Numbered from the stretch's first letter, positions 13,885 to 47,125 are shown. The stretch: 64,000 nucleotides of DNA from an uncultured beta proteobacterium (GCA_963774675.1 CAVZFV010000010.1:52793-116792); one strand, 5' to 3'. The notes: a model not told the origin generated them from the sequence alone. Translations and numbers: made by a program.

Positions 13885-15335
13885 CGCGATGCGCCTCCGT
13901 TGCGAGCCTTGGACCGATACGGCACGGTGATCGTCACGCGCGTGCCGCCGCCCTCATTCTCCGTCACTGTGAGCTGGGCGTGCTTGCCGTACAGCAGCAG
14001 AAGGCGCTCGCGAATGTTCGTCAGGCCGAGGCCGGTGCCGGCGGTCGCCGCCTTGCCGAAGCCGAGGCCGGTGTCGGCGACGCTCACCTCCAGATCGCCG
14101 TCCACGATCTCGGCGGCGACGGTCAAGGTGCCGCCTTCGGCCTTGGGCTCCAGTCCATGCTTGATGGCGTTTTCGACCAGCGATTGCAACATCATCGGCG
14201 GGAACTCGGCCGACAGCAGGCCGTCGCTGACGCGGACCTCGGTCTGCAGGCGCTCCTCCATGCGCACCTTCAGGATTTCGAGGTACGGCCGGATCACGGC
14301 GAGCTCGCGCCCGAGGTTGGTGTCGGCCTCGCGCAGCGTGGGCATGCTCGCACGCAGCAGCGCGATCAGGTTCTTCTGCATCTTGCTTGCGCGCGGCGGG
14401 TCGGTCTCGATCAGATGGTCGATCGAGGCCAGCGTGTTGAACAGGAAGTGCGGCTCCACCTGCGCCTGCATCGCCGCCATGCGCGCCTCGACGACCTGGC
14501 GCTTGAGCGATTCGGCCTCCGCCGTCTCGGTCGCCGCGGCCGCCTTGACCTCTGCCTGCAGCCGGCCCTTGTAGGTGATCTTCAGGATCACGGAGGCGAT
14601 GATGAAGAGGAACGCAAGCGGTGGCAGCGGCTCGCCGAGCTCGACCCTGTGAATTCGCGTGCGCGGCAGGTCCATCACGTCGGCCTTGGCCTGCTCGGCG
14701 TCGGCCTGCACCTGCTTGGCATCGTTGACCGCTTCCTCGATTGCCTGGCGCGCGTCTTCGACCGCCTCGCGCACGTCTGCGGATTTCACGCTCGCCGGCA
14801 GATCGATCGAGATCGACGGCAGCCTCGGGTGACGCACTGTCGTGTCGCCCGCTGCCCCGCTCGCCGCGTTGTTCGCCGCTTTGTTCGCTGCATCGCTTGC
14901 TGCGTCCGTCGGAACCGTGGCATTCGCAGTGCCGGACGAAGATGCCGCGCTCGCGGCGCTCGCCCCGCTCGCCCCGTCCGTGGCGCTTGCCGCAGAGGCC
15001 GCCTTCTCGCCCACCGGGCGGATGCGGATGCCGCGATCGTCGATCGTCACGTCGTAATGCACCGGCTTGTCGAGCGCCACCGCGGGCTTGGGCGGCCGTG
15101 GCGGCCTGGGCGGCAGGTGCTCGACGGTCTCCGAAATGCGCCACGTGAACGGCGGCAGGTTCTGCAACACGCCCGAAATGATCATCAGCAGGATGGAGAG
15201 CACGATGAAGCGCTTCCAGCTGATGCCGACCAGCCAGTTCGCGTAGGCGTGAAACGTGCGCACCGACCAGGCGGCGAAGCGCTGCGCGTGGCTGGGGGGC
15301 ACGTTGGCTCCGGAATGTGTCGAACGGTTGGTCAT
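13881..15335 (-). CDS. LytS/YehU-type sensor histidine kinase
   Basis: H-box VEPHFLFNTLASIDHLI (His_kinase PF06580 type) and ATPase boxes GLGFG / GLGLTNIRERLLLLYG. Two TM helices flank a ~190-aa Ala/Ser/Pro-rich segment. Confidence 0.85.
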   Translation of the reverse strand: MTNRSTHSGANVPPSHAQRFAAWSVRTFHAYANWLVGISWKRFIVLSILLMIISGVLQNLPPFTWRISETVEHLPPRPPRPPKPAVALDKPVHYDVTIDDRGIRIRPVGEKAASAASATDGASGASAASAASSSGTANATVPTDAASDAANKAANNAASGAAGDTTVRHPRLPSISIDLPASVKSADVREAVEDARQAIEEAVNDAKQVQADAEQAKADVMDLPRTRIHRVELGEPLPPLAFLFIIASVILKITYKGRLQAEVKAAAATETAEAESLKRQVVEARMAAMQAQVEPHFLFNTLASIDHLIETDPPRASKMQKNLIALLRASMPTLREADTNLGRELAVIRPYLEILKVRMEERLQTEVRVSDGLLSAEFPPMMLQSLVENAIKHGLEPKAEGGTLTVAAEIVDGDLEVSVADTGLGFGKAATAGTGLGLTNIRERLLLLYGKHAQLTVTENEGGGTRVTITVPYRSKARNGGASR

Positions 15336-32901: not shown

Positions 32902-33180
32902 GAGCGCGGCAGTGCCCGGCGGCTTCGCTCATCGCCTGCTACACTTTTCCGATGTTCAGCGCGCGCAAGTTCACGCACAGGTCGCACGACCGGGGAGCCT
33001 GGCCCTGGCGTCGGCCCGCCGCGCCGGTTTAGGCGCTGGCGGGTGGCGTGAGGGGCGCAACGGCGCCGCCGCGCCTTCCGACTCCCATCGGGCCGAGTTC
33101 GATCGGCCCTGATCGAATCGAATCACCCCGCTGCTTCGCGCATTGGCGCATTGGCGGGGCTCGCGCAAGGTCCACCAGAC

Positions 33181-34746
33181 GTGATCACTGAACTCGAATT
33201 CAAGAGCCTTGCGCAGCAGGGTTTCAATCGCATCCCGTTGCTCGTCGAGGCGTTCGCCGACCTCGAGACGCCGCTCTCGCTCTACCTCAAACTCGCGTAC
33301 GGAACGCCCCAAGGTCCGGGCTGCGCCCAGCCCGCCCCCCACGGGGATCAAGGAAACTTGGGGCGGCCCGGCGTTTCCTTGCGCGACGGCAGCGGCAAGC
33401 ACAGCTTCCTGCTCGAATCGGTTGTCGGCGGCGAACGCTTCGGCCGCTATTCGTTCATCGGCCTGCCGGCGCGCACGCTGCTGCGCGCAAGCGGCTTCAA
33501 GACCGAAGTCGTCACCGACGGCGCAGTCGTCGAGACGCATGAGGGCAACCCGCTCAATTTCATCGCCGCCTATCAGCAGCGTTTCAAGGTCGCTTTGCGC
33601 CCGGGCTTGCCGCGCTTTTGCGGCGGTTTGGCCGGCTACTTCGGCTATGACGCGGTGCGCTTCATCGAGCCGAAGCTCGCGAAGACGTGGAAGGCGGGCG
33701 GCATCGACACGCCCGACATCCTGCTGCTGCAGTGTGAAGAGCTCGCCGTGATCGACAATTTGTCGGGGCGGCTCTACCTGATCGTCTACGCGAACCCGGC
33801 GGAGCCGGAGGCCTATTTCAGGGCCAAGCGGCGGCTCGCGGAGCTCGGTGACAAACTCACGACCAGCGTTACTGCGCCGCATGTGAAACGCGTCGCGGCG
33901 CAAGACGTGGAACGTGAGTTCGCGAAGAGCGACTACGTCGCCGCCGTGTTGAAGGCCAAGGACTACATCGCGGCCGGCGACATGATGCAGGTGCAGATCG
34001 GCCAGCGGCTGAAGAAGCGCTACACGGAAAGCCCGCTGTCGCTCTATCGGGCGCTGCGCTCGCTGAACCCTTCGCCCTACATGTTCTTCTACGACATGGG
34101 CGAGTTCCAGATCGTCAGCGCGAGCCCCGAAATCCTGGTGCGCCACGAGCGTGTGCCCGAAGGCGAGAAGGTGACTATCCGCCCGCTCGCCGGCACCCGG
34201 CCGCGCGGTGCGACGCCCGAGCAGGACAAGGCGCTCGAGGCCGAGCTGCTCGCCGATCCGAAGGAGCGAGCCGAGCATGTGATGCTGATCGACCTGGCGC
34301 GCAATGACATCGGCCGCATCGCGAAGACCGGCAGCGTGAAGGTGACCGAGGCTTTCGTCGTCGAGCGCTACTCGCACGTGATGCACATCGTGAGCAATGT
34401 CGAGGGGCTGCTGAAGGACGGCATGACGAACCTCGACGTGCTGCGCGCGACCTTTCCCGCCGGCACACTGACCGGCGCGCCCAAAGTGCGCGCGATGGAG
34501 ATCATCGACGAGTTGGAGCCCGTCAAGCGCGGCATCTATGGCGGCGCCTGCGGCTACCTGAGCTTCGCCGGCGACATGGACGTTGCGATCGCGATCCGCA
34601 CCGGCATCGTCAAGGACGGCATGCTGTACGTGCAGGCAGCGGCTGGGGTCGTCGCCGACTCGGTGCCCGAACTCGAGTGGAAGGAGACCGAAGCCAAGGC
34701 GCGCGCTTTGATCCGCGCCGCGGAACTGGTCGAAGAGGGGTTCTGA
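33181..34746 (+). CDS. trpE: Anthranilate synthase component I
   Basis: ITELEFKSLAQQGFNRIPLLVEAFADLETPLSLYLKL, LLESVVGGERFGRYSF and GGACGYLSFAGDMD. GTG 33181 is preferred as start; TTG 33151 is possible. Confidence 0.9.
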   Translation: MITELEFKSLAQQGFNRIPLLVEAFADLETPLSLYLKLAYGTPQGPGCAQPAPHGDQGNLGRPGVSLRDGSGKHSFLLESVVGGERFGRYSFIGLPARTLLRASGFKTEVVTDGAVVETHEGNPLNFIAAYQQRFKVALRPGLPRFCGGLAGYFGYDAVRFIEPKLAKTWKAGGIDTPDILLLQCEELAVIDNLSGRLYLIVYANPAEPEAYFRAKRRLAELGDKLTTSVTAPHVKRVAAQDVEREFAKSDYVAAVLKAKDYIAAGDMMQVQIGQRLKKRYTESPLSLYRALRSLNPSPYMFFYDMGEFQIVSASPEILVRHERVPEGEKVTIRPLAGTRPRGATPEQDKALEAELLADPKERAEHVMLIDLARNDIGRIAKTGSVKVTEAFVVERYSHVMHIVSNVEGLLKDGMTNLDVLRATFPAGTLTGAPKVRAMEIIDELEPVKRGIYGGACGYLSFAGDMDVAIAIRTGIVKDGMLYVQAAAGVVADSVPELEWKETEAKARALIRAAELVEEGF

Positions 34747-34837
34747 TCCAGGGGCGTGTCACGGCCATATCAAATCACGATGCCGAATCTCGATTGTGAT
34801 TCCATCGGCAGGTTCGTGACGCTGACTGCGGGACGCC

Positions 34838-34854
34838 AGCCGCTTTGAGCGGCT
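34838..34854. terminator. Short hairpin between convergent trpE and the SNF2 helicase gene
   Basis: AGCCGCT-TTG-AGCGGCT, a 7-bp stem with a 3-nt loop. Weak candidate. Confidence 0.2.
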
Positions 34855-34890
34855 CAGATCGCGAATGCTTCCGGCCTTGCTGCGGGACGG

Positions 34891-37428
34891 TTACCGCAAC
34901 CAGGGCGCGAATGCCTTGGCCAAGCGCTGCATCACGGCGGCGTCGGGCAGCGGCAGGCGCACACTGGCTTGGCCTGTGACTGGGTCGCGCTCGATCGTGA
35001 TGGGCGCCGAGCCAGGGGTCGCGCCGCTAGCCGTTCGCGCCGCCGCCAGGCCCTGCAAGAACGCGGCTCCGGCTTCGAGGATCGGTCCCCAAGGATCGGC
35101 CGGCTCAGCGCGAGGCGCAGCATCTTCGGGTAGCTTCGTTGCCGGATCTGGATCCGCCGCCGCGACGCCTTTGGCAACTCCTGCGTCGCCATCGACCGTA
35201 GGCGCTACGTCGACGGCAGCGGGCGCTGTGCCGCCCGAACTTGAGGCCCCCGGCGGCTCGCCCGCAGGATCCGCGTCGGCCTCGCCCATCGCGCCGGCCA
35301 CCTGCTCGACGCTCTCCATGAATTTGGACAAACGCGTGCCCTGCAAAAACACCTCGTTCGCGCCGCCGTCGAGTACGCCGGCGAAGAGCGACTTCTTGAA
35401 CGCGAGCACGCTGAGCATGCCCTCCTCGATGCTGCCCTGGCCGACGAAGTTGATAACTTGCACGCCGCGCGACTGGCCCATGCGGTGGACGCGGCCGATG
35501 CGCTGCTCGAGCACCGCCGGGTTCCACGGCATGTCCATGTTGACGACCACCGCCGCCGCGTGCTGCAGGTTCAGGCCCACGCCGCCGGCGTCGGTGGACA
35601 GGAACAGCCGGCAATCCGGATCGTTATGGAAGCGCTCGACAAGCGCGCCCCGCTTGTCGCCGGGCACGCTGCCACTGAACAGCACGTGGCCCCAGGCGCG
35701 TGTACCTTCAGCGGCATTGAGCCGGCGCACGATCAACTCGTGCGTGCCGAGCCACTGGCTGAAGATCACCGCCTTGGCCTCGGGCGCCTCCAGCAGCTCG
35801 TCGAGCAAGGTCATCAACTCGTCGACCTTGTGGCCGTGATCGGTCTCGTGGTCGAGCAGCCAGGTGCTGTTGCAGACCATGCGCATGTTCTGCAACGAAC
35901 AGGTGAGCCGGCGCTGGTCGGCATCCGACAGGTAACCTGTCTTGCGCCAGCGCGAGACGATGCGCGCGACGATGTCGCCGTTGTCGTCGTGGTGCATGCG
36001 CTGCTGCGGCGTCAGCGGCACGAAGATCCGACTGTCCACGCGTCCGGGCAACTGCGTCAGCACTTCGGCCTTGCGCCGGCGCAGCATCACCGGCGCCAAC
36101 GTCTGGCCGATGCGGTCCAGGGCGCGGTAGCCGATCACGCGGCCGGCGTCGTCGCGCAACTGGTGTTCGTCGAGCAGGCGCCAAGTGGGGCCGAGGCGGT
36201 GCTGATCGACGAATTGCACGATCGAGATCAGCTCCTCGATCCGGTTTTCCAGCGGCGTGCCGGTCAGCACCAGCGCATACGGGCTCGCGATGCGCTTGAG
36301 CGTGCGGGCGGCGATGGTGTTCCAGTTCTTGATGCGCTGCGCCTCGTCGGCGATGACGAGGTCGGGCGCCCAGCCGGCGATCAGGTCGGCATCGCGCGCC
36401 AGCGTTTCGTAGTGGGTGATTTTGCAGAATGCGTCTTCGCGGTACTGCAGTTGGCGCTGCGGGCGCAGGCCGTGGATCACCTGCGCCTGGCGCTCGGAGA
36501 AGCGCGCGAATTCAGCCCTCCACTGATGCTTGAGCGAGGTCGGGCACACCACCAGCACGCGCTGCACGCCGAAGTGGCGGGCGAAGAGTTCGGCCGCGGC
36601 GACAGCCTGGATCGTCTTGCCCAGGCCCATCTCGTCGCCGATCAGCGCACGCCCGGCGCGCACCGCGAACAGCGCACCTTCGGCCTGGTAGGCGTAGAGC
36701 TTGACCTTCAGGAGTTTGGCCAGGGCCTTGTCCTGCGCACCCTTGGGGTAGGCCTTGGCCAGGGCGGCCTGGCGATGTTCGCCGTCGCGAATCTGGGCCA
36801 CGAACTGCCAGACATCGTCGTAGCAGCGCAGCTCGTGGTCGCTTTCTTGCGCCATGCGGACAAACGCATTGAGCTCGTCGAGGCGATCCCGGGGCAGGGC
36901 CCAACCGGCGGCCTTGTCGAACAGTTGCTCGGCCTGCGCCAGCAGCGTCGGCGGGCAACTCCTGCCGGCACGAAAGCGCAGCCGGCGCGCGCCGGCGTAG
37001 TCGAGCCAGACCTCGCTGTACTCGGGCTCGAAGCCGCGCGCCAGCGCCACCTTGCCGCCGCGCCTGGCCTCGAGCTTGGACAGCGTGAACTCGATGTGCT
37101 TGCAGGTGCCGAGATCGTTGGTCGCGAAGTCCGGGCAGGTGCAGAAGTTTTGGCCCAGCGCACGCCCCCGGATCGAGACCCGATAGCGGCTGCCGCTGGT
37201 CGGGTTGTGCACGCTGAAGTCCGAGAACACCGGCTCGGTGCCCAGGTTTTCCAGGCCGAAGCTCTGCTCGCGGCCGAACTGGCGCCGCAGCGCGGTCTGC
37301 CAGTCGGCGACTTCCAGGCTCGGCGGCCGGCGCGTGCGCGAGTGGCGCGGCTCGGCCTTCTTGCTGGTCGGGCCGGGCCGGCCTTTGCCAGTTTGGGCCG
37401 GAGGTTTGCGGGCGCTGCGGGTAGGCAT
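34891..37428 (-). CDS. SNF2-family helicase with N-terminal SWIM zinc finger
   Basis: 845 aa. SWIM CTCPDFATNDLGTCKHIEF. SNF2 motifs DEMGLGKTIQ, DEAQRIKN, GGVGLNLQ and RVHRMGQ. Ala/Pro/Gly-rich C-terminal ~150 aa. Confidence 0.85.
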   Translation of the reverse strand: MPTRSARKPPAQTGKGRPGPTSKKAEPRHSRTRRPPSLEVADWQTALRRQFGREQSFGLENLGTEPVFSDFSVHNPTSGSRYRVSIRGRALGQNFCTCPDFATNDLGTCKHIEFTLSKLEARRGGKVALARGFEPEYSEVWLDYAGARRLRFRAGRSCPPTLLAQAEQLFDKAAGWALPRDRLDELNAFVRMAQESDHELRCYDDVWQFVAQIRDGEHRQAALAKAYPKGAQDKALAKLLKVKLYAYQAEGALFAVRAGRALIGDEMGLGKTIQAVAAAELFARHFGVQRVLVVCPTSLKHQWRAEFARFSERQAQVIHGLRPQRQLQYREDAFCKITHYETLARDADLIAGWAPDLVIADEAQRIKNWNTIAARTLKRIASPYALVLTGTPLENRIEELISIVQFVDQHRLGPTWRLLDEHQLRDDAGRVIGYRALDRIGQTLAPVMLRRRKAEVLTQLPGRVDSRIFVPLTPQQRMHHDDNGDIVARIVSRWRKTGYLSDADQRRLTCSLQNMRMVCNSTWLLDHETDHGHKVDELMTLLDELLEAPEAKAVIFSQWLGTHELIVRRLNAAEGTRAWGHVLFSGSVPGDKRGALVERFHNDPDCRLFLSTDAGGVGLNLQHAAAVVVNMDMPWNPAVLEQRIGRVHRMGQSRGVQVINFVGQGSIEEGMLSVLAFKKSLFAGVLDGGANEVFLQGTRLSKFMESVEQVAGAMGEADADPAGEPPGASSSGGTAPAAVDVAPTVDGDAGVAKGVAAADPDPATKLPEDAAPRAEPADPWGPILEAGAAFLQGLAAARTASGATPGSAPITIERDPVTGQASVRLPLPDAAVMQRLAKAFAPWLR

Positions 37429-37622
37429 AGGGGGTGCGGGCTTGCGCTCAGGGCGAAGGGTGGCTGCAATTCTCGCTCGCCGCGCGAAGCGATCCGAAGG
37501 CTTGCTCCTTGGCAGTGGAACTTGTGCCGCAGCAGGCGAGTGCGTTGGGCGAGGTGCAGGCCTGAAGCACGGCCATGATGCGGGCTATGCACGCAAAGCC
37601 ATCCGCATTGGCAGCGCTTTTC

Positions 37623-37819
37623 GGTTGGCGTTGGCGCAAGCCATCAGCCTGACCGACCTATTGCGCTCTCACGGGGCGCCTCAGTCCCCACCCTGCACGA
37701 CGCGCCGGCTTCGCCAGCGACAGAAGATTCGGGTATCAAAGCGGGTATGAAACGTGGATGTCTCGCAAGGCATCCCGCGGAAACAATGGGATAGAGCGCA
37801 AATGCTGCTGATGATCGAC
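37623..37819 (+). repeat. Left 197-bp direct repeat (attL-like) with trpG upstream region and first 6 codons
   Basis: 192/197 identical, with no indels, to 45247-45443. Ends with ATGCTGCTGATGATCGAC (MLLMID), then diverges. Confidence 0.95.
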
Positions 37820-37956
37820 CGGCCCCAGGTAGGTGTCACGACATCCCGCCGCCGCCCGCAAACCCGCGCCAATGCTGGCGATTGGGGCTCCTGACGTCTC
37901 ACTGAATTCGGCCCCGGCCCGGCAAAAAGCGGGTATCAAAGCGGGTATCGGTTGCC

Positions 37957-39075
37957 ATGCAAATCTCCCGCCGCGACCTGTACAACCGTGTGTGGTCCAC
38001 GCCGATGATCAAGCTCGCCCGAGAGCTCGATATCTCGGACGTCGGGCTGGCCAAGGCCTGCCGCCGGTACAACATCCCCCGTCCGCCGCGTGGCTACTGG
38101 GCCAAGCTCGCGGCCGGCAAGGTATCCCCGAAGCCTGGCCTGCCGCCGGCCAAGATTGATACGGTGGAGTTCGATGCGGCCCGGCATCGCATTCCGACGC
38201 CGCCCAAGGTCGAAGTCGACACCGCGAGCATCGAGGTCACGGTAGCGTTCCCTGGCGAGGACCTGGCGGGCATAGCCGCAGTGACCTGCGAGCGACTGTC
38301 CAATGCGAAGCCTTCGGCCGACGGCTTCGTCTCCTGCGGCTCGTACCGGGTCCTGAGCTGTTCACTGAGCCCCGCGACCGTAGAGCGAGCCTGTCGCATC
38401 CTGAATGCGGTCGAACGTGCCTTGCCTACCGTCAGCGCGCGCTTCGTGCACGACCAAGAGAAGAAGCGGGTCGACATCGACATCAGTGGCGAGCGGATGG
38501 GCATCAGCATCGCCGAGGACTACACGCGCACCGAGGCCGTCAAGGTGGTCCCGAAGTATTCGTGGATGAAGACACGCCTGTTCTCGTACCACTTCACGGG
38601 CGATCTGCGGCTGACGATCTCGGGCGACTTCTCCGGCCGGAAGTCCTGGTCCGACGGCAAGCGCTCGCGCCTGGATCAAAAGCTCGAAAGCTTTCTCGTC
38701 GGCTTGGCCACCGGCGCGCGGGCCATTGCCCAGCTGCGTACTGACCGCGAGGAGCAGCGAAGACGATGGGAGGAGCAGGCACGCGAGGCCGAGATTGCCA
38801 GGGAGCGACAGCGTCGACTGCGCAGCTTTGCAGATCAGCTTCGCAAGGAGGCGATGGCTTGGCATCGCTACTGCGACGTGAAGGCCTACGTCGATCACCT
38901 ACAGAGCCAGCTCGGCGCAAGCGAGGCATTGCCTGAGCACAGCCGCGAGTGGCTGCGGCTTGCCGTGCACTTGGCCAGGCTGACCGACCCCACCAAAGCG
39001 CGGCTTGAGGTCTTGCAGGCTGGTGTCTCCGGCTACGACTACGACATGCCGTTTGGTCGCTCCGTCGTGGGGTAA
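37957..39075 (+). CDS. Hypothetical protein (N-terminal HTH-like motif, C-terminal coiled-coil)
   Basis: 372 aa. N-terminus RRDLYNRVWSTPMIKLARELDISDVGLAKACRRYNIPRPPRGYWAK looks like a helix-turn-helix. The C-terminal REEQRRRWEEQAREAEIARERQRRL is coiled-coil-like. No family assigned. Confidence 0.6.
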   Translation: MQISRRDLYNRVWSTPMIKLARELDISDVGLAKACRRYNIPRPPRGYWAKLAAGKVSPKPGLPPAKIDTVEFDAARHRIPTPPKVEVDTASIEVTVAFPGEDLAGIAAVTCERLSNAKPSADGFVSCGSYRVLSCSLSPATVERACRILNAVERALPTVSARFVHDQEKKRVDIDISGERMGISIAEDYTRTEAVKVVPKYSWMKTRLFSYHFTGDLRLTISGDFSGRKSWSDGKRSRLDQKLESFLVGLATGARAIAQLRTDREEQRRRWEEQAREAEIARERQRRLRSFADQLRKEAMAWHRYCDVKAYVDHLQSQLGASEALPEHSREWLRLAVHLARLTDPTKARLEVLQAGVSGYDYDMPFGRSVVG

Positions 39076-39150
39076 GGCTTCAGCGTCTGCAAGTCGGCTG
39101 ACGGTGCGTGCGACCGTGTCGGTCAATCTGCAGGTGGCTGGCAACTGGCG

Positions 39151-40233
39151 CTACAGCAGCCCGTCGTCCTCCATGTCCCTCAATGCCTCGGGGTGGAGCA
39201 TCACCTTCAACTTCTTGCGCAGCGGCACGACCTTGGGGTCGAAGTTCTTGACCAGATCTTCGTGCTGGGCGGCGACAAAGTCGCGCATGCGCTTGGCCTC
39301 ACGCACTTCCAGCGCGCGCAGTTCGGTCAAGGGTCGCTCGATGCGCCGGCAGTCGCGCAGAAACGACGTGAAGCGGACCGCCGCCAGCGCATCGGGATCG
39401 CTGAAGACGACGAGCAGGTTGCGTTCGTTCGGGGGCTGGTGTTCCCACGGGTGGTCGTCTAGGAAGCACGCCCCTTGGCGTTGCTCGCAGAACAACTGCC
39501 CCAACTCGCTGCGGCGGCGGAACTGTTCCTCCCAGACTCTGTGCTGTAACTCTTCGAGCAGCGCTTCCTGGGCGTTGGCTTCCACACGCATAACCCAGCG
39601 GATTGACCCGCTCTCGTCGCGCTTTCCGTCCTCGGGGCAGCGCACGTGGCGGTGCGGAAGGCGCGCCTCGATCTCGGCGCTTGCGGCGTCTTCCATGGCG
39701 CCGTAGAGGTGCCACGACGCCATCGTCAGTGTCAAGTAGCACAGCTGGCCGTCCACGAGAACGCGAGCCCAGGTGCCATGAAGGGCGCCGGTGTAGGGTT
39801 CGGGCTGATAGTCCTTGAGGTCCCGCTGCTTGGCGTCCTGCTGGAAGGCGTGGTCGTCGCGGTCGTAGTCGAGCAGCGTCTCGAAATCGAGGATGCTGCC
39901 GTCCTCGGCAAAGTGCTCGTTGAGCGCGAAGGCATCCTCACCGATGCCCTTGAGCGGCTGCAGCCACTCGTTGATGCGGTTCTGCAGGGCGAGCGGCACG
40001 CGCCCATGCGACTCGAGCTTCGCCACCGCTGCAGGCCAGCGCTCGCCGTGCTCGCGTAGCAGCGCCGCGACGATGGCTTCGCGGTCTTCGTCCGGCAGCT
40101 TCACGCGATACCGGAGTTGCTCTTCGGCCGACCAGGCGAAGTACTCCGGCCGAGCCACCATAACGGCACGGCGCAGTTCGGGCGACCACCGGTCGAGGCC
40201 GGTGGCCGATTCGGTGCCGGGTGTGGGAAGCAC
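39151..40233 (-). CDS. Hypothetical protein, no recognisable domain
   Basis: 360 aa acidic protein with codon usage consistent with coding. Convergent with the 372-aa ORF and divergent from the integrase. Confidence 0.55.
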   Translation of the reverse strand: MLPTPGTESATGLDRWSPELRRAVMVARPEYFAWSAEEQLRYRVKLPDEDREAIVAALLREHGERWPAAVAKLESHGRVPLALQNRINEWLQPLKGIGEDAFALNEHFAEDGSILDFETLLDYDRDDHAFQQDAKQRDLKDYQPEPYTGALHGTWARVLVDGQLCYLTLTMASWHLYGAMEDAASAEIEARLPHRHVRCPEDGKRDESGSIRWVMRVEANAQEALLEELQHRVWEEQFRRRSELGQLFCEQRQGACFLDDHPWEHQPPNERNLLVVFSDPDALAAVRFTSFLRDCRRIERPLTELRALEVREAKRMRDFVAAQHEDLVKNFDPKVVPLRKKLKVMLHPEALRDMEDDGLL

Positions 40234-40417
40234 GAAGTCATTCTTTCATGGTCGGTGCGGACTGCCTGCGGGTTCGCTGCGTCGAGCCGATGGCGAGACC
40301 GATGCGATGTTGGTGCCCTTTCGCGGCCAGCGATCGAGAGGGTGTTGACCGGGGATCGGAAGCAGGGACGATGGTTTGGCGGGCGCAACCCGCGATTCAC
40401 CGATCACCCCCCAGACC

Positions 40418-41626
40418 ATGCCCCTCACCGACATCAAGATTCGCCAAGCCAAGGCCGCCGACAAAGCCCTCAAGCTCGCCGACACCGCCGGCCTGTACCT
40501 CGAAGTCAAGCCCAACGGCTCGAAGCTCTGGCGCTACCGCTATCGCATCGCGGGCCGAGAGAACCTGTACGCGATCGGCGACTACCCATCGGTCTCACTG
40601 GCGGAAGCGCGCAAGGCGCGCGACGAAGCCCGCGACCTGATCAAGCAGGGGAGGCACCCGGCGCACGCCCGCCAAAGCGAGCGCACCCAGCAGATCAGCG
40701 CCAACGCGCTGACCTTCAAGGCCATCGCCGAAGAGCGGATCGCAAAGAAGCGCAGCCGGTGGGCACCGTACTACCTGCTGCAGATCCAGCGCGGCATGAA
40801 GAAGGACATCTACCTGCGCATCGGGCGGCTGCCGATCCGCTCGGTCACCGCGGCCGACGTGCTGGCCATCCTGGACCGTGCCACCAAGCGCGGCGCCGAG
40901 GTGGTGGCGCTGAACCTGCGGCAGTGGTGCCCGCAGGTCTTCCGCTACGCTGTGGCCACGCTGCGTGCCGACCACGACCCGGCCTCGGCCCTGCGCGGCG
41001 CCGTCATCCGCCCGCCGGTGAACCACAGCCGGCCGATGGACCGCGACGAGATCGCCGCCCTCCTGCGCAAGCTGCAGGGCTTCGGCGGCCACCGCACCAC
41101 GGTGATCGCGCTGCGCCTGCTGCTGCTGACCTTCGTGCGCACGATCGAGATGCGCAAGGCCGAATGGACCGAGGTGGACCTGGCCGCCGCCGAGTGGCGA
41201 ATCCCTGTCGAGAAGATGAAGATGCGCCGGCTGCACATCGTGCCGCTGTCCACGCAGGCGGTGGCGCTGCTCACCGAGCTGAAGGGCATCACCGGCGCCG
41301 GCCGCTGGCTGTTCCCCAACCACCGCCGGCCGCACGACGTGATGTCGGCCACCACCATCAACCACGCACTGATGGGTCTGGGCTTCGCATCGGCTACCGT
41401 CACCGCGCACGACTTCCGCGCCACCGCGTCGACAAGGCTGCACGAGATGGGCCTGCGCTCCGACTTCATCGAGCTGCAGTTGGCCCACGTGGAGCGCAAC
41501 CGTGTGCGCGCCGCCTACAACCACGCCGACCATCTGGCAGAGCGCGCCGCGAAGATGAAGTCCTGGGCCGACTGGCTGGATGCCATCGCGGCGGAGAGCC
41601 CCAGCGCCCAGAACGCCAAGGGCTGA
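40418..41626 (+). CDS. int: P4-type tyrosine integrase (DUF4102 arm-binding domain + catalytic domain)
   Basis: MPLTDIKIRQAKAADKALKLADTAGLYLEVKPNGSKLWRYRYRIAGRENLYAIGDYP N-terminus. Catalytic HDFRATAST...LAHVERNRVRAAYNH. Confidence 0.9.
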   Translation: MPLTDIKIRQAKAADKALKLADTAGLYLEVKPNGSKLWRYRYRIAGRENLYAIGDYPSVSLAEARKARDEARDLIKQGRHPAHARQSERTQQISANALTFKAIAEERIAKKRSRWAPYYLLQIQRGMKKDIYLRIGRLPIRSVTAADVLAILDRATKRGAEVVALNLRQWCPQVFRYAVATLRADHDPASALRGAVIRPPVNHSRPMDRDEIAALLRKLQGFGGHRTTVIALRLLLLTFVRTIEMRKAEWTEVDLAAAEWRIPVEKMKMRRLHIVPLSTQAVALLTELKGITGAGRWLFPNHRRPHDVMSATTINHALMGLGFASATVTAHDFRATASTRLHEMGLRSDFIELQLAHVERNRVRAAYNHADHLAERAAKMKSWADWLDAIAAESPSAQNAKG

Positions 41627-41641
41627 CCGCCGCGGCAAGCA

Positions 41642-42298
41642 TCACGCGGCCGGCTCGCCGGGGGTGGTGGCCTCCGCTTTCTGCTGGCGCGGACGACCGA
41701 GGATTGCGCCCAGGTACGCCGTCGAGGCTCTCGGCCTGGAGTGACCTGCCAGGCGCGAAACCGCCAGCCGCGCCGCCTTCTCGGCGTCCGCAGGCACGTC
41801 CACGCCGCCGCGCACCGGCGGCTGGTGTCCGGTCTGAACCACGAACTCTTCGATCAGCGCTTCGTGTCGCAGCCCGTGCGCCGTGATGCCCAGCTTGCTG
41901 ACCGTGATCCCGAACTTCTCCAGCACGTAGCCAAAGCGGCGCAGGTTCCGCTTCAGATCCTGGTTGGGATTGCCAAGGTGCGCGTCCGACCCCGAGGCCA
42001 CGGTCTGCGCGTGCTCGATGGCGGCCAACCGTCGCGGGGTGTTCAGCGGCACGAAGCGCTGGCGCCCGTTCTTTGCACCCTGCCTGCCACCAGTTGCCCA
42101 CCTGCCCGCCCTTCGAAGAGTTCTGGCAAGAGTTGCCGGCGGTGTTTGACTGGCTGAACGAAGCGGCTGCTGTGCCGATGCTCGCCGCCATCTCGACTGG
42201 GCGGGTAGCCGTGGATGCCGGATGGCGCCCGCCGGCGATGGTCCGCGCCTGGGGCGCGGGGGCCAACTCCATGGAGACGATCCGCTTCGCGGCTGCAA
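41642..42298 (-). pseudogene. 5'-truncated second tyrosine recombinase (C-terminal catalytic half only)
   Basis: ..RFVPLNTPRRLAAIEHA...GITAHGLRHEALIEEF...LAGHSRPRASTAYLG carries the H-x-x-R, H and Y catalytic residues. The N-terminal ~80 aa of the ORF are Arg/Pro-rich and a normal N-terminal domain is missing. Confidence 0.6.
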
Positions 42299-42777
42299 AC
42301 CGGCTCAGCGTTCAGCTCGACTACACGAAAGAAGACGGAGAGCGCACCGCACCCACCATCGAACCGTATTCGGTCCGTCGCACTAGTGCTGGCGATCTAC
42401 TGCTCTTCGGCGTCAAGGCCGACACCGGGGAACCGAGGAGCTACCGCCTCGACCGAATTCGGTCGGCGACCGTTACCCGCCAGGCCTACCGGCCGCGTTA
42501 CGCCATCGAATTGACAGCCACAGGACCGTTGGACGTCGCAACGATCGCGCGACCCCCGGCACCCGTAGCGCCGCCGAGACTTGACAGGTTGATCGGGGCG
42601 CCCGCATCGAAGCGCGCGCCGTTACCCAAACCGGCGCGCGGCTTCGGCGTGTCGTACACCTTTGCATGCGCCATCTGCGGCAAGACCTTCAAGCGCAGCA
42701 CCTACGACTCCACGCTGAACCCGCACAAGAACAAACAGGGATGGCCGTGCCCTGGGCGAATCGGCCATCCGAAGTGA
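42271..42777 (+). CDS. Small WYL-like domain protein with C-terminal Cys/His cluster
   Basis: Start placed at METIRFAAANRLSVQLDYTKEDGERTAPTIEPYSVRRTSAGDLLLFGVKADTGEPRSYRLDRIRSA (WYL-type beta-barrel pattern). C-terminus FACAICGKTF...NPHKNKQGWPCPG. Confidence 0.55.
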   Translation: METIRFAAANRLSVQLDYTKEDGERTAPTIEPYSVRRTSAGDLLLFGVKADTGEPRSYRLDRIRSATVTRQAYRPRYAIELTATGPLDVATIARPPAPVAPPRLDRLIGAPASKRAPLPKPARGFGVSYTFACAICGKTFKRSTYDSTLNPHKNKQGWPCPGRIGHPK

Positions 42778-42787
42778 ACGAGAACCT

Positions 42788-43220
42788 ATGAATCTGCAAG
42801 AACTGCTGACCAAGCTCGAGACGCCGATCGTCATCCGCCCCACGCGGCGCATGACCCAGGGCGAGCTTGAAACCTACCTCGACAAGGCAGCCGCCCGCGG
42901 ATGCGTGAACCTGCCGGACGGGCGCGCCATCGACTACAAGATTCGGCTCTCGACGCGGGCGCGATCGGCTCGGCTGGGGCAGTTGCGCGAGGAGCGGGCG
43001 CATCAGCCTGAACTGCAAGCTGCTCTTCCTCCCGCGAGAGCTGGTGCGCTACGTGATGGTTCAAGAGATCTGCCACTTGCTGGAAGCCAACCACTCCGGC
43101 CACTTCTGGGCCCATGTGCGCGGGCTGGACAGCTCCGCGGACGCCCATCACGGAAGGATGCGTGATGCGTGGAAGCTTGTACCTGGGTGGGCGCAGCGTG
43201 GCTCGGGCTTGACGCTGTGA
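42788..43220 (+). pseudogene. DUF45 (YgjP/M48-like) metallopeptidase, frameshifted and with degenerate QExxH
   Basis: Frame A reads ..IDYKIRLSTRAR... From about 42960 the +1 frame reads DRLGWGSCARSGRISLNCKLLFLPRELVRYVMVQEICHLLEANHSGHFW. The usual HExxH reads QEICH. Confidence 0.6.
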
Positions 43221-43286
43221 GCTGTCGCAGCAGACCGTAGCCAGAACCACCAAGAGATCGAGATCGCAGCAAGAGCAAGGCGAAAC

Positions 43287-43589
43287 ATGCAGGCCAATCC
43301 GAGAACTATCGATGCGCTGTTCAACTCTCAACTTCGGCAGGTGGTACCGATGTTCCAACGGCTCTACGTCTGGGAAGAGAACCCCCAGTGGTCGACGCTG
43401 TGGGAAGACGTCGTCGAGAAGGCAGACCTCGAGATCGCTGGCACTGAGACCGTGCCCCACCACCTTGGTGCTCTCATCATCGATGGTGTGCGACCCAGCT
43501 CGCCACGGGAAGTAAAGCGGTTCCTGGTCATCGACGGGCAGCAGCGTTTGACGACGCTGCAGCTTCTGCTCTGCGCGTTCCGCGACTAA
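43287..43589 (+). pseudogene. DUF262 (GmrSD N-terminal, ParB-like nuclease) protein, 5' part, cut by the IS
   Basis: ..VPMFQRLYVWEE...FLVIDGQQRLTTLQLLL.. is the DUF262 signature. The ORF ends at the TAA that abuts the IS left end. Confidence 0.75.
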
Positions 43590-44526
43590 GAAGTTATCCG
43601 TAAATAGTACACTGTCGTTCCGAGCCGCATCTCACGCGGTGATCGGACGGCGATATGGCTACACGCAAGCGGGTTAACTCATGGGTAGTGACCGACGACT
43701 TCTGGGAGCGAGTGGAGCCACTGATTCCAGTGCGTACGCGCATCAAGGGCAAGGAGTACCTGCGCAAGCCAGGTGCCGGGCGACCGCCCAAGCCGGCGCG
43801 ACAGGTGTTCGAGGCGGTGGTGTATGTGCTTCGCACAGGCTGCCAGTGGAAGGCGCTGCCCAAGGAGCGATTTGGCAGCGCTAGCGCGGTGCACAAGCGC
43901 TTCTTGGAATGGGAGGAGGCTGGCGTGTTCGAGGCGATCTGGAAAGCCGGACTTGCCGAGTACGACCAGATGGAGGGCATCGCCTGGCGATGGCAAAGCA
44001 TCGACGGGGCCATGTTCAAGGCGCCCTTGGCGCAAGAAGCGGTGGGGCGCAACCCGACCGATCGGGGGAAAAAAGGGGAGCAAGCGACATCTGCTGGTGG
44101 ACGGCCGTGGCGTCCCGTTGTCGCTCGTCGTGACCGGAGCCAATGAGCATGACGTCACCCAACTCGATCAAGTGCTGCGCGTCATCATGGTCAAGCGCAA
44201 AACCCCGGCCACCAGACGCAGCAAGCATCTGTGCGCCGATGCAGGATATCGAGGCAGGCGCGCATTGGAGATCATCGAATCACACGGCTACATCCCACAC
44301 GTCGTCAGTCGCCCCAAGGAAGCCGCGGCCAAGCTGCGCGACCCAGCGAAGAAGGCACGACGCTGGGTGGTCGAGGTCTGCCACAGTTGGTTCAACCGCT
44401 TTCGCAAGCTGCTGGTGCGATACGAGAAGCTCGAACGAAGCTTCCTCGCGCTCAACCACATCGCTGCGGGAATCATCGCGTTTCGCAAGGTCAAGTTGAC
44501 AGTCAACATTATTTACGGATAACTTC
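43590..44526 (+). mobile_element. IS5-family insertion sequence (IS427/IS1031-like), 937 bp
   Basis: 17-bp terminal inverted repeats GAAGTTATCCGTAAATA (43590-43606 and 44510-44526), flanked by TAA on both sides. It encodes a DUF4096 + DDE transposase. Confidence 0.9.
43655..44522 (+). CDS. IS5-family transposase, two overlapping frames joined at a G5A6G4 run
   Basis: Frame A: MATRKRVNSWVVTDDFWERVEPLIP...GCQWKALPKERFGSASAVHKRF...NPTDRGKKG. Frame B (+1) continues SKRHLLVDGRGVPLSLVVTGANEHD...CADAGYRG...RWVVEVCHSWFNRFRKLLVRYEK. Confidence 0.85.
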
Positions 44527-44529
44527 TAA

Positions 44530-45195
44530 GCCAGGAAGAACGATTGGAAGACGCTCGACCGGCCGACGACTCGCTATCTGGCGAACTCCGATGCTGATGT
44601 CATGGAAAGGCCGGACGAGGAGGTATACAAGCTTTGGCCGTCCACGCTGAATCGCGATGTCTTTCGCGCGATCGTGTCGGGTGGCAGCAGAGGCGAGGTA
44701 GAAAAGCGATACCCACTGATCAAGCTACCGAGAAAGAGGAAACCTGAGCCCAGGAGCAACCTCGTCGAGGCCTATCTCTTCTTCGCGCGATCGGTCGAGT
44801 CGTGGGTGACGCAGACATCGACGATGTCCGGAAAGACCAGTGAAGACTGCGCGTTTGCCTTGCTACAGGCCCTGCAGCAACGGTTTCACGTCGTCGAGAT
44901 TGCACTCTCTGAAGGCGATGACGCTCAGGAGATTTTCTATTCGCTGAACTCACAGGGGCGGCCCTTGTCGCAGTCCGACCTGCTGCGCAGCCTGATCTTC
45001 ATGCGCGCCGAGCGGGAGCGACAGGACCGGGACACGATCTTCTCGGACTACTGGAGCAAGTTCGAGACGCCGTTCTGGAGCACCGAGATCAAACGCGCCG
45101 GCCGGACTTATTCCCGGCTCGACCTGGGCCTGCGCTACTTCCTGATGGCCAAGACCGGCCAACTCATCGATGCCAGGCGAGTCAACGAGGAGTAG
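44530..45195 (+). pseudogene. DUF262 protein, 3' part downstream of the IS
   Basis: Same frame as the 5' part once the IS is removed. ..DDAQEIFYSLNSQGRPLSQSDLLRSLIF.. is the second conserved DUF262 block. No DUF1524/HNH-like C-terminal domain follows. Confidence 0.65.
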
Positions 45196-45246
45196 CCCAT
45201 AATGCATCTCATGTCTGCGCGCCTTCTTTCATCAGCAGCACTCTTT

Positions 45247-45443
45247 GGTTGGCGTTGGCACAAGCCATCAGCCTGACCGACCTATTGCGCCCTCACGGGG
45301 CGCCTCAGTCCCCACCCTGCACGTCGCGCCGGCTTCGCCAGCGACAGAAAATTCGGGTATCAAAGCGGGTATGAAACGTGGATGTCTCGCAAGGCATCCG
45401 GCGGAAACAATGGGATAGAGCGCAAATGCTGCTGATGATCGAC
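45247..45443 (+). repeat. Right 197-bp direct repeat (attR-like), continuous with the functional trpG
   Basis: 192/197 identical to 37623-37819. The ATG at 45426 continues into an intact trpG. Confidence 0.95.
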
Positions 45444-46010
45444 AACTACGACTCCTTCACCTACAACCTGGTGCAGTATTTCGGCGAACTCGGCGAAGAA
45501 GTGCGGGTGTTTCGCAACGACGAGATCACGCTTGAGGGCATCGCCGAACTCAAGCCCGCGCGGCTGGTACTTTCGCCGGGGCCATGCACGCCGGCCGAGG
45601 CGGGCATCTGCGTGGCGGCGATTCGTGAGTTCACCGGCAAGCTGCCGATCCTCGGCGTGTGCCTCGGACACCAGGCGATCGGCATGGCGCTCGGTGGCAA
45701 GGTGGTGCGCGCGCAGCGGCTGATGCACGGCAAGACGAGCGAACTGACGACCGATGGGCGTGGTGTGTACGCTGGTTTGCCGAAGGAGTTCACCGTGATC
45801 CGCTATCACTCGCTCGCGATTGAGCGCGCGTCGCTGCCGGCCAGGCTCGAGGTCAGCTCGACTTCGGAAGATGGCGAGATCATGGGGGTGCGCCACCGCG
45901 ACCTTGCGGGCACTGCCACGCCGCTCGAAGGCGTGCAGTTCCACCCCGAGTCGATCCTGAGTGAACACGGGCACGCGATGCTGAAGAATTTTCTGGAGTT
46001 GCGGCCATGA
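45426..46010 (+). CDS. trpG: Anthranilate synthase component II (glutamine amidotransferase)
   Basis: [23 protein letters not shown], catalytic [10 protein letters not shown], and VQFHPES. Start at ATG 45426 rather than the longer ORF. Confidence 0.9.
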
Positions 46011-47125
46011 CGCGCCCGAGCGACAGGCCGTCCCAAGCCGGGCGCGACGTCCGTGGGGGGGCGGCCCACGGTCCCGCGGACCGGGGAGCCGACATCCTGG
46101 TCGATCTGCGCAGCGACACGGTCACCAAGCCCACGCCAGCAATGCGCGACGCGATGGCGTGTGCAGAAGTGGGCGACGACGTGTTCGGCGACGATCCGAG
46201 CGTTAACGCGCTGCAGGAGCGGATTGCGGCAATGTTCGGCTTCGAAGCCGCGCTATTCCTGCCGAGCGGCACGCAGAGCAATCTGGTCGCGATCATGAGC
46301 CACTGCCAGCGCGGCGACGAATACATCGTCGGCCAGATGGCGCACACCTACCGCTGGGAAGGCGGCGGCGCGGCCGTGCTCGGCAGCGTGCAGCCGCAGC
46401 CGATCGCCCATCAGCCGGACGGCACGCTGCTGCCTGCCGATATCGAAGCCGCGATCAAGCCCGACGATGCGCACTTCGCCCGCAGCCGGCTGCTGTGCCT
46501 GGAGAACACGCTCGGCGGCAAGGTGCTGCCGATGGCGTACCTACGCGCGGCGACGACGCTTGCACGCTCGCGCGGCCTAGCGACGCATCTCGACGGCGCG
46601 CGGCTCTTCAACGCGGCGGCCGCGCTTGGCGGTGACGTGAGGCAACGCGCGCGGGAGATCGCGCAGTGCTTCGACAGCGTTTCCGTCTGTTTCTCCAAAG
46701 GTCTCGGGGCGCCGGTCGGCTCGGCCCTGTGCGGCAGTCGCGAGTTCATTGCGCGCGCGCACCGCTGGCGCAAGATGGCAGGCGGTGGCATGCGCCAGGC
46801 CGGCGTGCTCGCGGCGGGCGCGATGCACGCACTCGAACACCACGTCGATCGCCTCGCCGATGATCACGCGAACGCGCGTCTTCTTGCCGCGGGCCTCGAA
46901 GGGCTGCCTGGCGTGACGGTCGAGCCGCCGCAGTCCAACATCGTCTTCGTCGATGTGGCGGCCGGCCGGGCCGATGGCTTGCTCGATCATCTGAAATCGC
47001 GCGGCGTGCTCGCGACCGGCCTCTATCGATTGCGCTTCGTCACGCATCTGGACGTCGATGCCGACGGCATCGCGCGTGCCGTTGCGGCCATGCACGAACA
47101 CCTGAACCGAGAAACCCCGACATGA
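46007..47125 (+). CDS. ltaE: Low-specificity L-threonine aldolase
   Basis: [33 protein letters not shown], and the [11 protein letters not shown]-lysine region. ATGA overlap with the trpG stop. Confidence 0.8.

Follow-up and report, generated by a model that had tools for sequence, protein, structure and literature searches.

An island carrying a P4-type integrase gene at the start of trpG in an uncultured beta proteobacterium

The genetic context of trpG was examined in a 64,000 nucleotide stretch of DNA from an uncultured beta proteobacterium (GCA_963774675.1 CAVZFV010000010.1:52793-116792; the whole stretch is referred to here as the window), and the gene was found directly to the right of a 7.6-kb segment that includes a gene for a P4-type tyrosine integrase. 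A preliminary description of this DNA had proposed that an integrase island had recombined into the very start of trpG between direct repeats of 197 bp. Alignment of the two repeat copies (37623-37819 and 45247-45443) reproduced the reported identity at 192 of 197 positions, with five mismatches and no gaps; both copies terminate in ATGCTGCTGATGATCGAC, and only the right one runs on into the open reading frame (ORF) of trpG, which encodes a GATase domain. Gap-free extension stretches the pair to 214 nt at 95% identity, with the left copy then starting at 37606. A 22-mer taken from the repeat occurs exactly twice in the 64-kb window (0.00 expected by chance), as does the 18-mer ATGCTGCTGATGATCGAC (0.07 expected), and the integrase gene sits inside the segment whose bounding direct repeats contain the block of identity described below. 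The sequence from the core copy at 37802 to that at 45426 can with good confidence be regarded as a single integrative island of 7,624 bp. The G+C content is 0.56-0.61 within 43000-45500 and 0.65-0.70 outside the island, and no transfer RNA (tRNA) gene that could be the target was found near either junction.

On the left of the island lie an SNF2-type helicase gene and, directly left of that, trpE, which the preliminary description had overlooked. On the right, trpG is followed by a beta-eliminating lyase (ltaE-like) gene, trpD, trpC and a UDG gene, and the names given earlier to these genes were confirmed by homology and Pfam matches. In most related species, the trpE stop codon is 1-30 nt ahead of the trpG start. 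The trpG neighbourhood was collected from 80 species genomes, and in the 72 loci with enough upstream DNA the distance between trpE and trpG was <60 nt in 40, 60-200 nt in four, 200-600 nt in 12 and 0.6-7.3 kb in eight, with no trpE within ~8-10 kb of trpG in a further eight. As trpE abutting trpG is the commonest arrangement, it is most likely ancestral, and the window DNA between trpE and trpG, where the two genes are now 10.7 kb apart with intervening genes on both strands, is therefore probably derived.

The SNF2 gene is an old resident between trpE and trpG in this lineage, located outside the 7.6-kb island. In metagenome-assembled genomes (MAGs) of Ideonella (loci L151 and L152; other loci are cited in the same way) and Rubrivivax (L154), no integrase gene was found near the trpE-SNF2-trpG block. 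The order in L151 and L152 is trpE, an AraC-type gene, SNF2, 331 bp, trpG, the lyase gene, trpD, trpC and UDG, and the 331-bp spacer is homologous from end to end with 37429-37819 of the window. These two loci have the arrangement that the preliminary description predicted for an uninterrupted site (SNF2, one copy of the repeated segment, then trpG), and they represent the empty site for this particular island. The N-terminal sequence of TrpG in the window (MLLMID...) is the same as in empty-site relatives, and its GATase domain is intact; an exact look-up of the whole protein gave no record.

Relatives of the integrase were gathered by protein look-ups and by metagenome and viral scans. The expectation that homologues would be found beside trpG was borne out, as a trpG-type core is present left of the integrase gene in 23 of 32 loci with an integrase relative of 53-93% identity; in eight of the nine others the left flank was too short, and the ninth is L088. 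In L004, L006, L091, L094 and L124, the trpE end is 5-32 nt ahead of the core. Of 20 scanned loci with integrase relatives of no more than 47% identity, 15 had the relative 150-250 bp past a tRNA or tmRNA gene, and no tRNA gene was found in seven trpG-clade loci scanned. Given that relatives of at least 53% identity are at a trpG core whereas those of at most 47% are at tRNA or tmRNA genes, specificity for trpG is a property of one subclade, which appears to be nested among ordinary tRNA-targeting P4-type integrases. This clade uses the trpG start in many Beta- and Gammaproteobacteria, including in prophages of the Pseudomonas group. No description of a trpG-specific integrase was found in the literature searched, though large island databases may list such elements, and a phage database held no close relative of the integrase, the best match (50%) being from Yersinia phages YeP4-6. 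An attachment site at the 5' end of a protein-coding gene had been thought unusual in the preliminary description; however, protein-gene targets are not rare, as coding sequences house 43.4% of the islands recorded by the TIGER/Islander survey (PMC12424338).

The limits of the recombination site were deduced from Stutzerimonas balearica. In genomes CP045858.1 and CP007511.1, which represent attB, trpE ends 11 nt ahead of trpG. A prophage is located at the trpE-trpG junction in L160, which encodes a TrpG protein identical to that of the S. balearica genomes, and the occupied and empty S. balearica sequences part exactly at the A of the ATG. The attL of L146 has the same trpE end as S. balearica and departs from it after ATGCTGCTGATGATCGA. 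Since the divergence points of attB, attL and attR delimit a block of 17 bp in S. balearica (18 bp in the window), the block of identity used in recombination is the first 17-18 nt of the trpG ORF, ATGCTGCTGATGATCGA(C). The 197-bp duplication is therefore real but its length is not the size of the recombination site, and the sequence beyond the core belongs to the arm of the element that lies upstream of the core (P arm). The attL cores have host-specific synonymous variants at codons 2-3 (CTC or CTT), the cores linked to a P arm all read CTGCTG, and in L124 the attL and attR cores differ at position 9. From these differences, strand exchange can be placed beyond nt 9, with ATGATCGA as its most likely location.

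A doubled motif, GGGTAY-N6-GGGTAY, is found 70-71 nt ahead of the core start in every P arm that retains the motif. The same doubled motif lies 128-129 nt past the core start in the arms on the other side of the core (P' arms), or 138-140 nt past it in the subclade with integrases of 53-57% identity and in L130, where the integrase identity of 70% refers to the N-terminus only. These spacings cover 24 cores in other loci and both cores of the window, in which all three copies of the motif are perfect (Table 1). In the phage contig L148, the spacing is unchanged though the P arm sequence is otherwise unrelated. The doubled motif is read as putative arm-type sites for the N-terminal domain of the integrase. 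L124 is a complete single island with the order trpE, core, P' arm, cargo, integrase fragment, P arm, core, trpG. Junctions of the form P arm-core-P' arm are present in metagenome contigs L001, L089, L090, L098 and L148, and could be either circles or attL sites formed on a resident arm.

Table 1. Features of the trpE-trpG region, with positions counted from the first nucleotide of the window
Feature	Position	Strand	Basis or remark
trpE, anthranilate synthase component I	33181-34746	+	tblastn, 81% to TrpE of L004; Pfam Chorismate_bind and Anth_synt_I_N
Possible remnant of an old P' arm, CCAGGGGCGTGTCACGGC, no core before it	34748-34765	+	2 nt after trpE stop; matches start of P' arm
SWIM/SNF2 helicase gene	34891-37428	-	Pfam; 82-88% homologues between trpE and trpG in L150, L151, L152, L154
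Resident P-arm-like region, B side of attL, holds left repeat copy from 37623	37571-37801	+	Homology with Ideonella spacer; aligns with P arms of other genomes
Putative arm-type motif GGGTATCAAAGCGGGTAT, resident P-arm-like region, 71 nt ahead of core	37731-37748	+	Perfect copy
Core copy in attL (ATGCTGCTGATGATCGAC), displaced first six trpG codons	37802-37819	+	Sequence comparison
Island P' arm	37820-37956	+	Homologous P' arms after the core in L001, L004, L006, L013, L089-L098, L124, L132, L133, L150
Putative arm-type motif GGGTATCAAAGCGGGTAT, P' arm, 129 nt after core start	37931-37948	+	Perfect copy
Cargo ORF, 372 aa, no family	37957-39075	+	74-78% homologues at same position in L013, L090, L092, L093, L124
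Cargo ORF, 360 aa, no family	39151-40233	-	89% homologue in L013
P4-type tyrosine integrase, full length, 402 aa	40418-41626	+	Pfam domains; conserved catalytic residues
WYL-domain protein, cargo or regulator	42073-42777	+	Pfam WYL; PADLOC WYL models and C-terminal part of AbiEii model
GmrSD/DUF262-like (type IV restriction-like) gene, N-terminal piece, cut by insertion sequence	43287-43589	+	PF03235 profile positions 3-77; PADLOC mREase_IV
Insertion sequence, ~945 bp, DUF4096 and DDE_Tnp_1 ORFs	43586-44530	+	21-bp terminal inverted repeats, 43586-43606 and 44510-44530
GmrSD/DUF262-like gene, second piece	44602-45195	+	PF03235 profile positions 87-199; stops at P-arm start
Island-borne P arm, now upstream of trpG, holds right repeat copy from 45247	45196-45425	+	13 P arms aligned
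CATAAT, -10-like hexamer, left edge of P arm	45198-45203	+	14-arm alignment; A24, A27 and T28 at least 90%
Putative arm-type motif GGGTATCAAAGCGGGTAT, island P arm, 71 nt ahead of core	45355-45372	+	Perfect copy
Conserved hairpin GGATGT-N8-GCATCC in P arm	45380-45399; second copy 37756-37775	+	Compensatory changes
Core copy in attR, now working first six trpG codons	45426-45443	+	Sequence comparison
trpG, anthranilate synthase component II, intact	45426-46010	+	GATase PF00117, E 5e-58

The flanks of the two repeat copies were compared with other loci. The 50 bp left of the right repeat (45196-45246) are 94% identical to the sequence at the same position in the Aquabacterium element L013, and the island P arm as a whole is 86% identical to that of L013 over 248 bp. 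The sequence just left of the left repeat copy shares 68% identity with the Ideonella resident region and 43% with the right copy. As the left flank of the right copy matches L013 and the left copy is continuous with Ideonella-type sequence on the SNF2 side, the copy adjacent to trpG is the one brought in by the island, which had been suggested before these comparisons were available. Over 37623-37801, the copies share 97% identity with one another and only 82-84% with the corresponding sequence in Ideonella, L013, L124 or other P arms, with a sharp change in identity at 37606-37623. A sharp boundary and a mosaic pattern of this kind fit gene conversion within the genome and would not be produced by a single crossover, and the 97% identity of the copies thus points to intragenomic homogenisation. 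The repeat would then be longer and cleaner than a recombination site needs to be because the arms are homologous and were subsequently homogenised.

The resident P-arm-like region on the left (37571-37801) would have been the sequence upstream of trpG prior to arrival of the island. In all likelihood this region is an arm left by an earlier insertion, since it has the motif of the family at the spacing of the family and since trpE abuts trpG in the outgroup (<60 nt apart in 40 of the 72 loci). The segment described earlier as the trpG promoter region is therefore indeed located upstream of trpG, but is probably not ancestral host DNA. The motif in the resident arm is perfect in the window and in L154, and has one mismatch in L151. 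In L150, a core and a P' arm 88.6% identical to that in the window are found left of SNF2, so that SNF2 there falls within island territory. An 18-nt sequence shortly after the trpE stop may also be what is left of a P' arm; CCAGGNNNGTGTCACGRC is confined to this trpE-side remnant and to 37825, where the P' arm is just beginning, against a chance expectation of 0.01, though this pattern was picked after both sites had been seen and its support is moderate. The rest of 34747-34890 did not align with P' arms.

A strict tandem array, with the order trpE, attL, SNF2 island, attP-like junction, second island and attR, was considered and dropped, as there is no core at trpE and the SNF2 block is fixed in relatives that lack an integrase gene. 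Of the three related att sites in such an array, the internal junction and attR are present and the trpE-side core is absent.

Three other loci showed further arrangements. In L097 (7092-9721), which has an integrase relative of 71% identity, 2.6 kb separate trpE from the core and include a 788-aa ORF and a stretch with weak similarity to a P arm, giving a second example in which a new island has landed beside an older insert without an integrase. L150 includes the closest SNF2 homologue (88%) and has an AhpC/Redoxin gene between trpE and the core and P' arm (14292-14933), so the trpE-proximal side of the site also gathers genes. The closest integrase relative (93%) is encoded by L088, where a 94%-identical P' arm (7780-7950) is joined to GCTGACGATCGAC (...GTCGCTGACGATCGAC) and not to a trpG start. 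Neither trpE nor trpG is nearby, and L088 may represent integration at a secondary site.

From these comparisons, it is proposed that the island's own P4-type integrase would have mediated site-specific recombination between attP and the 17-18-bp block at the start of trpG. The predicted attP would consist of a P arm of ~230 bp, the core and a P' arm of ~137 bp, beyond which lie cargo that varies between elements, the integrase gene and further cargo. Once integrated, the island would place its P arm and its own version of the first codons ahead of the body of trpG, while the displaced original trpG start would remain at the left junction. The TrpG sequence would be kept, but the gene would now be expressed, together with the lyase gene, trpD and trpC, from island DNA. 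As insertion splits the tightly packed trpE/trpG pair, an element using this site must carry expression signals for the genes downstream. In the window, the site would have been occupied earlier by a block without an integrase, made up of SNF2 and the P-arm-like region and fixed in the Rubrivivax/Ideonella lineage. Prior occupation would be the reason why the left junction reads P arm-core-P' arm and two homologous arms flank the island.

The island P arm may supply the promoter or other expression signals of trpG, and signals sufficient for trpG, the lyase gene, trpD and trpC would have to be within the arm or directly ahead of it. The arm is conserved in 14 sequences and has been retained in the integrase-less remnants L026, L041, L073, L151 and L154. 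In L013, the gene beside the P arm is divergent, so read-through cannot serve trpG there, and the Ideonella arm is also in a divergent spacer. The blocks in L026, L041 and L073 keep the P arm and have no core after trpE, and in two of them (L026 and L041) the remaining conserved parts of the P arm have outlasted a decayed arm motif, which fits selection on the arm for trpG expression and not for recombination. The best candidates for the trpG signals may be ATAAT at the left edge of the arm and a conserved hairpin (Table 1). The hairpin is 27-46 nt ahead of the trpG ATG; across the 14 P arms, four of its six pairs are changed on both sides, and its covariation score was matched by 1 of 500 shuffles. 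For the CATAAT hexamer no -35 partner was found, and the left repeat copy reads CATGAT in its place (37574-37579). No consensus terminator was found in the P arm.

At the left edge of the P arm, exactly where homology between elements starts, there is an almost unvarying (C/G/T)A(T/G)AAT with CATGTCTGCG directly after it. A non-coding RNA as target or leader within the repeat was also considered and rejected, as Rfam searches at E values up to 1 gave nothing relevant in 37000-46500 or upstream of trpE. The beta-eliminating lyase (threonine aldolase-like) gene (46007-47125) lies between trpG and trpD, an arrangement shared by 22 of the 80 species loci. Inspection by eye upstream of trpE revealed a short ORF, MFSARKFTHRSHDRGAWPWRRPAAPV (32953-33033), in which a single residue separates two Trp codons, with G+C-rich inverted repeats after it. 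The ORF resembles a trp leader peptide for attenuation, and if it is one, the insertions would uncouple trpG, trpD and trpC from attenuation.

Several observations weigh against the proposed integration at a site already occupied by an older element. Neither an excised circle nor a repaired junction was observed for this genome, and an identical structure would result if homologous recombination had taken place across the arm that both share. The trpE side of the SNF2 block has no core in the window, only the 18-nt P'-like remnant, hence the island origin of this block is not proven, and SNF2 homologues look like ordinary, apparently vertically inherited chromosomal genes. No excisionase was recognised among the island ORFs tested, and the insertion sequence and truncated GmrSD-like gene are signs of decay, thus the island may no longer move. 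With regard to expression, a consensus scan of the P arm detected no sigma-70-type promoter, and RNAalifold analysis of the 14 P arms gave a positive, i.e. unfavourable, covariation term and no support for a structured leader; the case for the arm driving trpG is therefore made from gene layout and conservation.

An unlikely alternative to an older insertion is that the 330-bp SNF2-trpG spacer is true host promoter DNA, copied by the elements as a surrogate in the way that tRNA-targeting islands carry a tRNA 3' end, and that the SNF2 block results from a chromosomal rearrangement. The SNF2 homologues (75-88% identity) do follow host phylogeny and one in Ramlibacter, of 77% identity, is at an unrelated, ordinary chromosomal locus; SNF2 and trpG are divergent with a single spacer in Ideonella, and the window lacks a core after trpE. 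However, the doubled motif is present at exactly -71 in the resident copies of the window and L154 (with one mismatch in L151), and it recurs at the same spacing in L148, where the P arm is otherwise unrelated, and again in every P' arm. The core and P' arm left of SNF2 in L150, the P'-like remnant after the trpE stop and the outgroup arrangement with trpE abutting trpG also argue for an older insertion.

It is improbable that the structure arose by RecA-dependent recombination between a P arm and the resident region, or by segmental duplication, with the integrase inactive at the core. A repeat of 197 bp at 97% identity is long enough for homologous recombination, whose product could not be told apart from the structure seen, and the sharp identity change at 37606-37623 is evidence of past recombination or gene conversion in the arms. 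However, members of the same family are joined precisely at the core where there is no resident arm (L004, L006, L091, L094, L124 and S. balearica). Moreover, a single crossover would make the right part of the left copy element-like, whereas both copies are only ~82% identical to L013 there, and an intact integrase and matching putative arm sites are present. That the repeat is an assembly artefact or a member of a dispersed family can be set aside with near certainty, as, although short-read assemblies often break or collapse at such repeats and contigs L001 and L089 begin inside the P arm, the 64 kb contain two copies and no more, the five mismatches are scattered over the length of the repeat, the flanks differ, the same architecture is seen in independent assemblies of different sources, and in all other genomes examined the segment is restricted to island junctions or the region upstream of trpG.

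The integrase favoured here as the agent of insertion has the domain order Arm-DNA-bind_3 (PF13356, E 9e-27), Phage_int_M (PF22022, E 4e-25) and Phage_integrase (PF00589, E 4e-21). Residues R241, K268, H331, R334, H357 and Y367, which we take to be catalytic from established knowledge of the family, do not vary in an alignment of 11 sequences down to 40% identity. Homologues numbered 6142, with top identities of 91-93%. The P4-type integrase, the insertion sequence and the non-housekeeping ORFs that had been noted between the repeats are all present, but the second recombinase fragment was not found, as tblastn of the integrase against the window gave no further match at E<1 and no recombinase domain was detected when the other ORFs were scanned with Pfam.

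No significant family was found in Pfam, PADLOC or NCBIfam for the 372-aa and 360-aa ORFs next to the P' arm, though the 372-aa ORF had a sub-threshold RWP-RK match in Pfam only. This convergent pair (37957-40233; 372 aa on the plus strand and 360 aa on the minus strand) recurs beside the P' arm in L013, L090, L092, L093, L124 and L150 at 74-89% identity, with a 336-aa gene in L150 judged by eye to be the counterpart of the 360-aa ORF from nucleotide similarity at the 3' end, and may be an uncharacterised cargo module. The GmrSD-like gene lacks its C-terminal half, as the PADLOC models are matched only to ~264-312 of 543-629 positions, and as it is also split by the insertion sequence, the right-hand cargo of the island is decayed. 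No transfer genes were recognised in the 7.6-kb island. Cargo across the family is varied and often defence-like, including a Cap4 nuclease, type I restriction genes, a methylase, a HEPN protein and a GmrSD-like gene. An element of 3 kb in the Aquabacterium MAG (L013; 7083-10018) consists of attL, the same two ORFs without a family, the P arm and attR, without an integrase gene; it is either a deletion derivative or movable by an integrase from elsewhere.

Other elements inserted in protein-coding genes provide comparisons. The e14 element and phage 21 lie inside a housekeeping gene, icd, and an element-borne surrogate end keeps the product functional. They replace the 3' end of the gene, for which no expression signals are needed, whereas the trpG island replaces the 5' end and everything upstream. 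Hochhut and Waldor reportedly found in 1999 that SXT gives prfC a new 5' coding end and a promoter. However, the SXT/R391 elements at the prfC 5' end are conjugative elements of ~100 kb, compared with 7.6 kb for the trpG island, and differ in target gene and integrase clade.

The dusA-associated islands have the same kind of mechanism as the trpG island. The element replaces the 5' end of dusA and leaves the original 5' end at the far junction, the att repeat is a semiconserved 21 bp, the clade spans islands and prophages, and putative promoters were noted upstream after integration (Farrugia et al. 2015; PMC4482086). The trpG island is of the same kind as the dusA and prfC islands, with trpG as a new target, and the likeness to the dusA and SXT systems is one of mechanism only. 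It differs from dusA islands in that the site is the first 17-18 nt of trpG at the junction of two abutting biosynthetic genes, such that insertion also separates trpG and the genes downstream from trpE, and in that the arm upstream of the core is long (~230 bp), conserved and outlives the element. Tandem or accreted islands, such as the phage-inducible chromosomal islands (PICIs) at fis, have an internal attP-like junction and a doubled motif precisely placed on both sides of the crossover (PMC10111431). The arrangement at trpG is the same in these respects, with a new element at an occupied site, but the trpE side has no core and the older block is integrase-less and fixed in the lineage.

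Integrases 56-57% identical to that in the window are encoded on predicted viral contigs, and in hosts of the genera Stutzerimonas and Pseudomonas the trpE-trpG junction is exactly where prophages with integrases of the clade are found. In the 48-kb contig IMGVR_UViG_3300014697_000021, an integrase gene lies at one end (L147) and a P arm, core and trpG at the other (L155), where the TrpG is exactly the S. balearica protein and the cargo includes tail-fibre and tape-measure genes. The 39.9-kb L156 ends in the same P arm, core and trpG, and its TrpG clusters with Pseudomonas and Stutzerimonas proteins. In the IMG/VR contig L148 (698-11164), contractile-tail baseplate, tail-fibre and endolysin genes directly precede the P arm, core, P' arm and integrase gene. 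If this phage were integrated, the integrase gene and the rest of the phage would be beside trpE, and the tail and lysis genes beside trpG.

The trpE-trpG junction is also the home of the R and F pyocins and of the independently derived R-syringacin, and the features that favour this location have been called unclear (PMC4542187; PMC13624779). The tailocin clusters lie at the same junction as the trpG island but have no integrases. The attachment system described here, with its 17-bp core, two precisely spaced arm motifs and intact integrase, belongs to a clade that ranges from small defence-type islands in Burkholderiales to prophages of 40-48 kb in Stutzerimonas and Pseudomonas hosts. We suggest, tentatively and as something rather less than probable, that this clade of integrases, specific for the first 17 nt of trpG (MLLMID), underlies the repeated colonisation of the trpE-trpG junction by phages, defence islands and progenitors of tailocins in Beta- and Gammaproteobacteria, including at the R-pyocin and R-syringacin loci of Pseudomonas, with P arms left behind and domesticated. 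The clade is thus a concrete candidate mechanism for the shared tailocin location that had been left unexplained (PMC4542187). As the core is conserved in many Proteobacteria, the integrase could also suit targeted insertion, as in Integrase-On-Demand (PMC12884075). Integration at this site has an unusual cost, as a biosynthetic gene pair is split, and the signals brought in would persist after the element has decayed. Left-over P arms may in this way have been domesticated as permanent expression signals for trpG, trpD and trpC, uncoupling these genes from the control of trpE.

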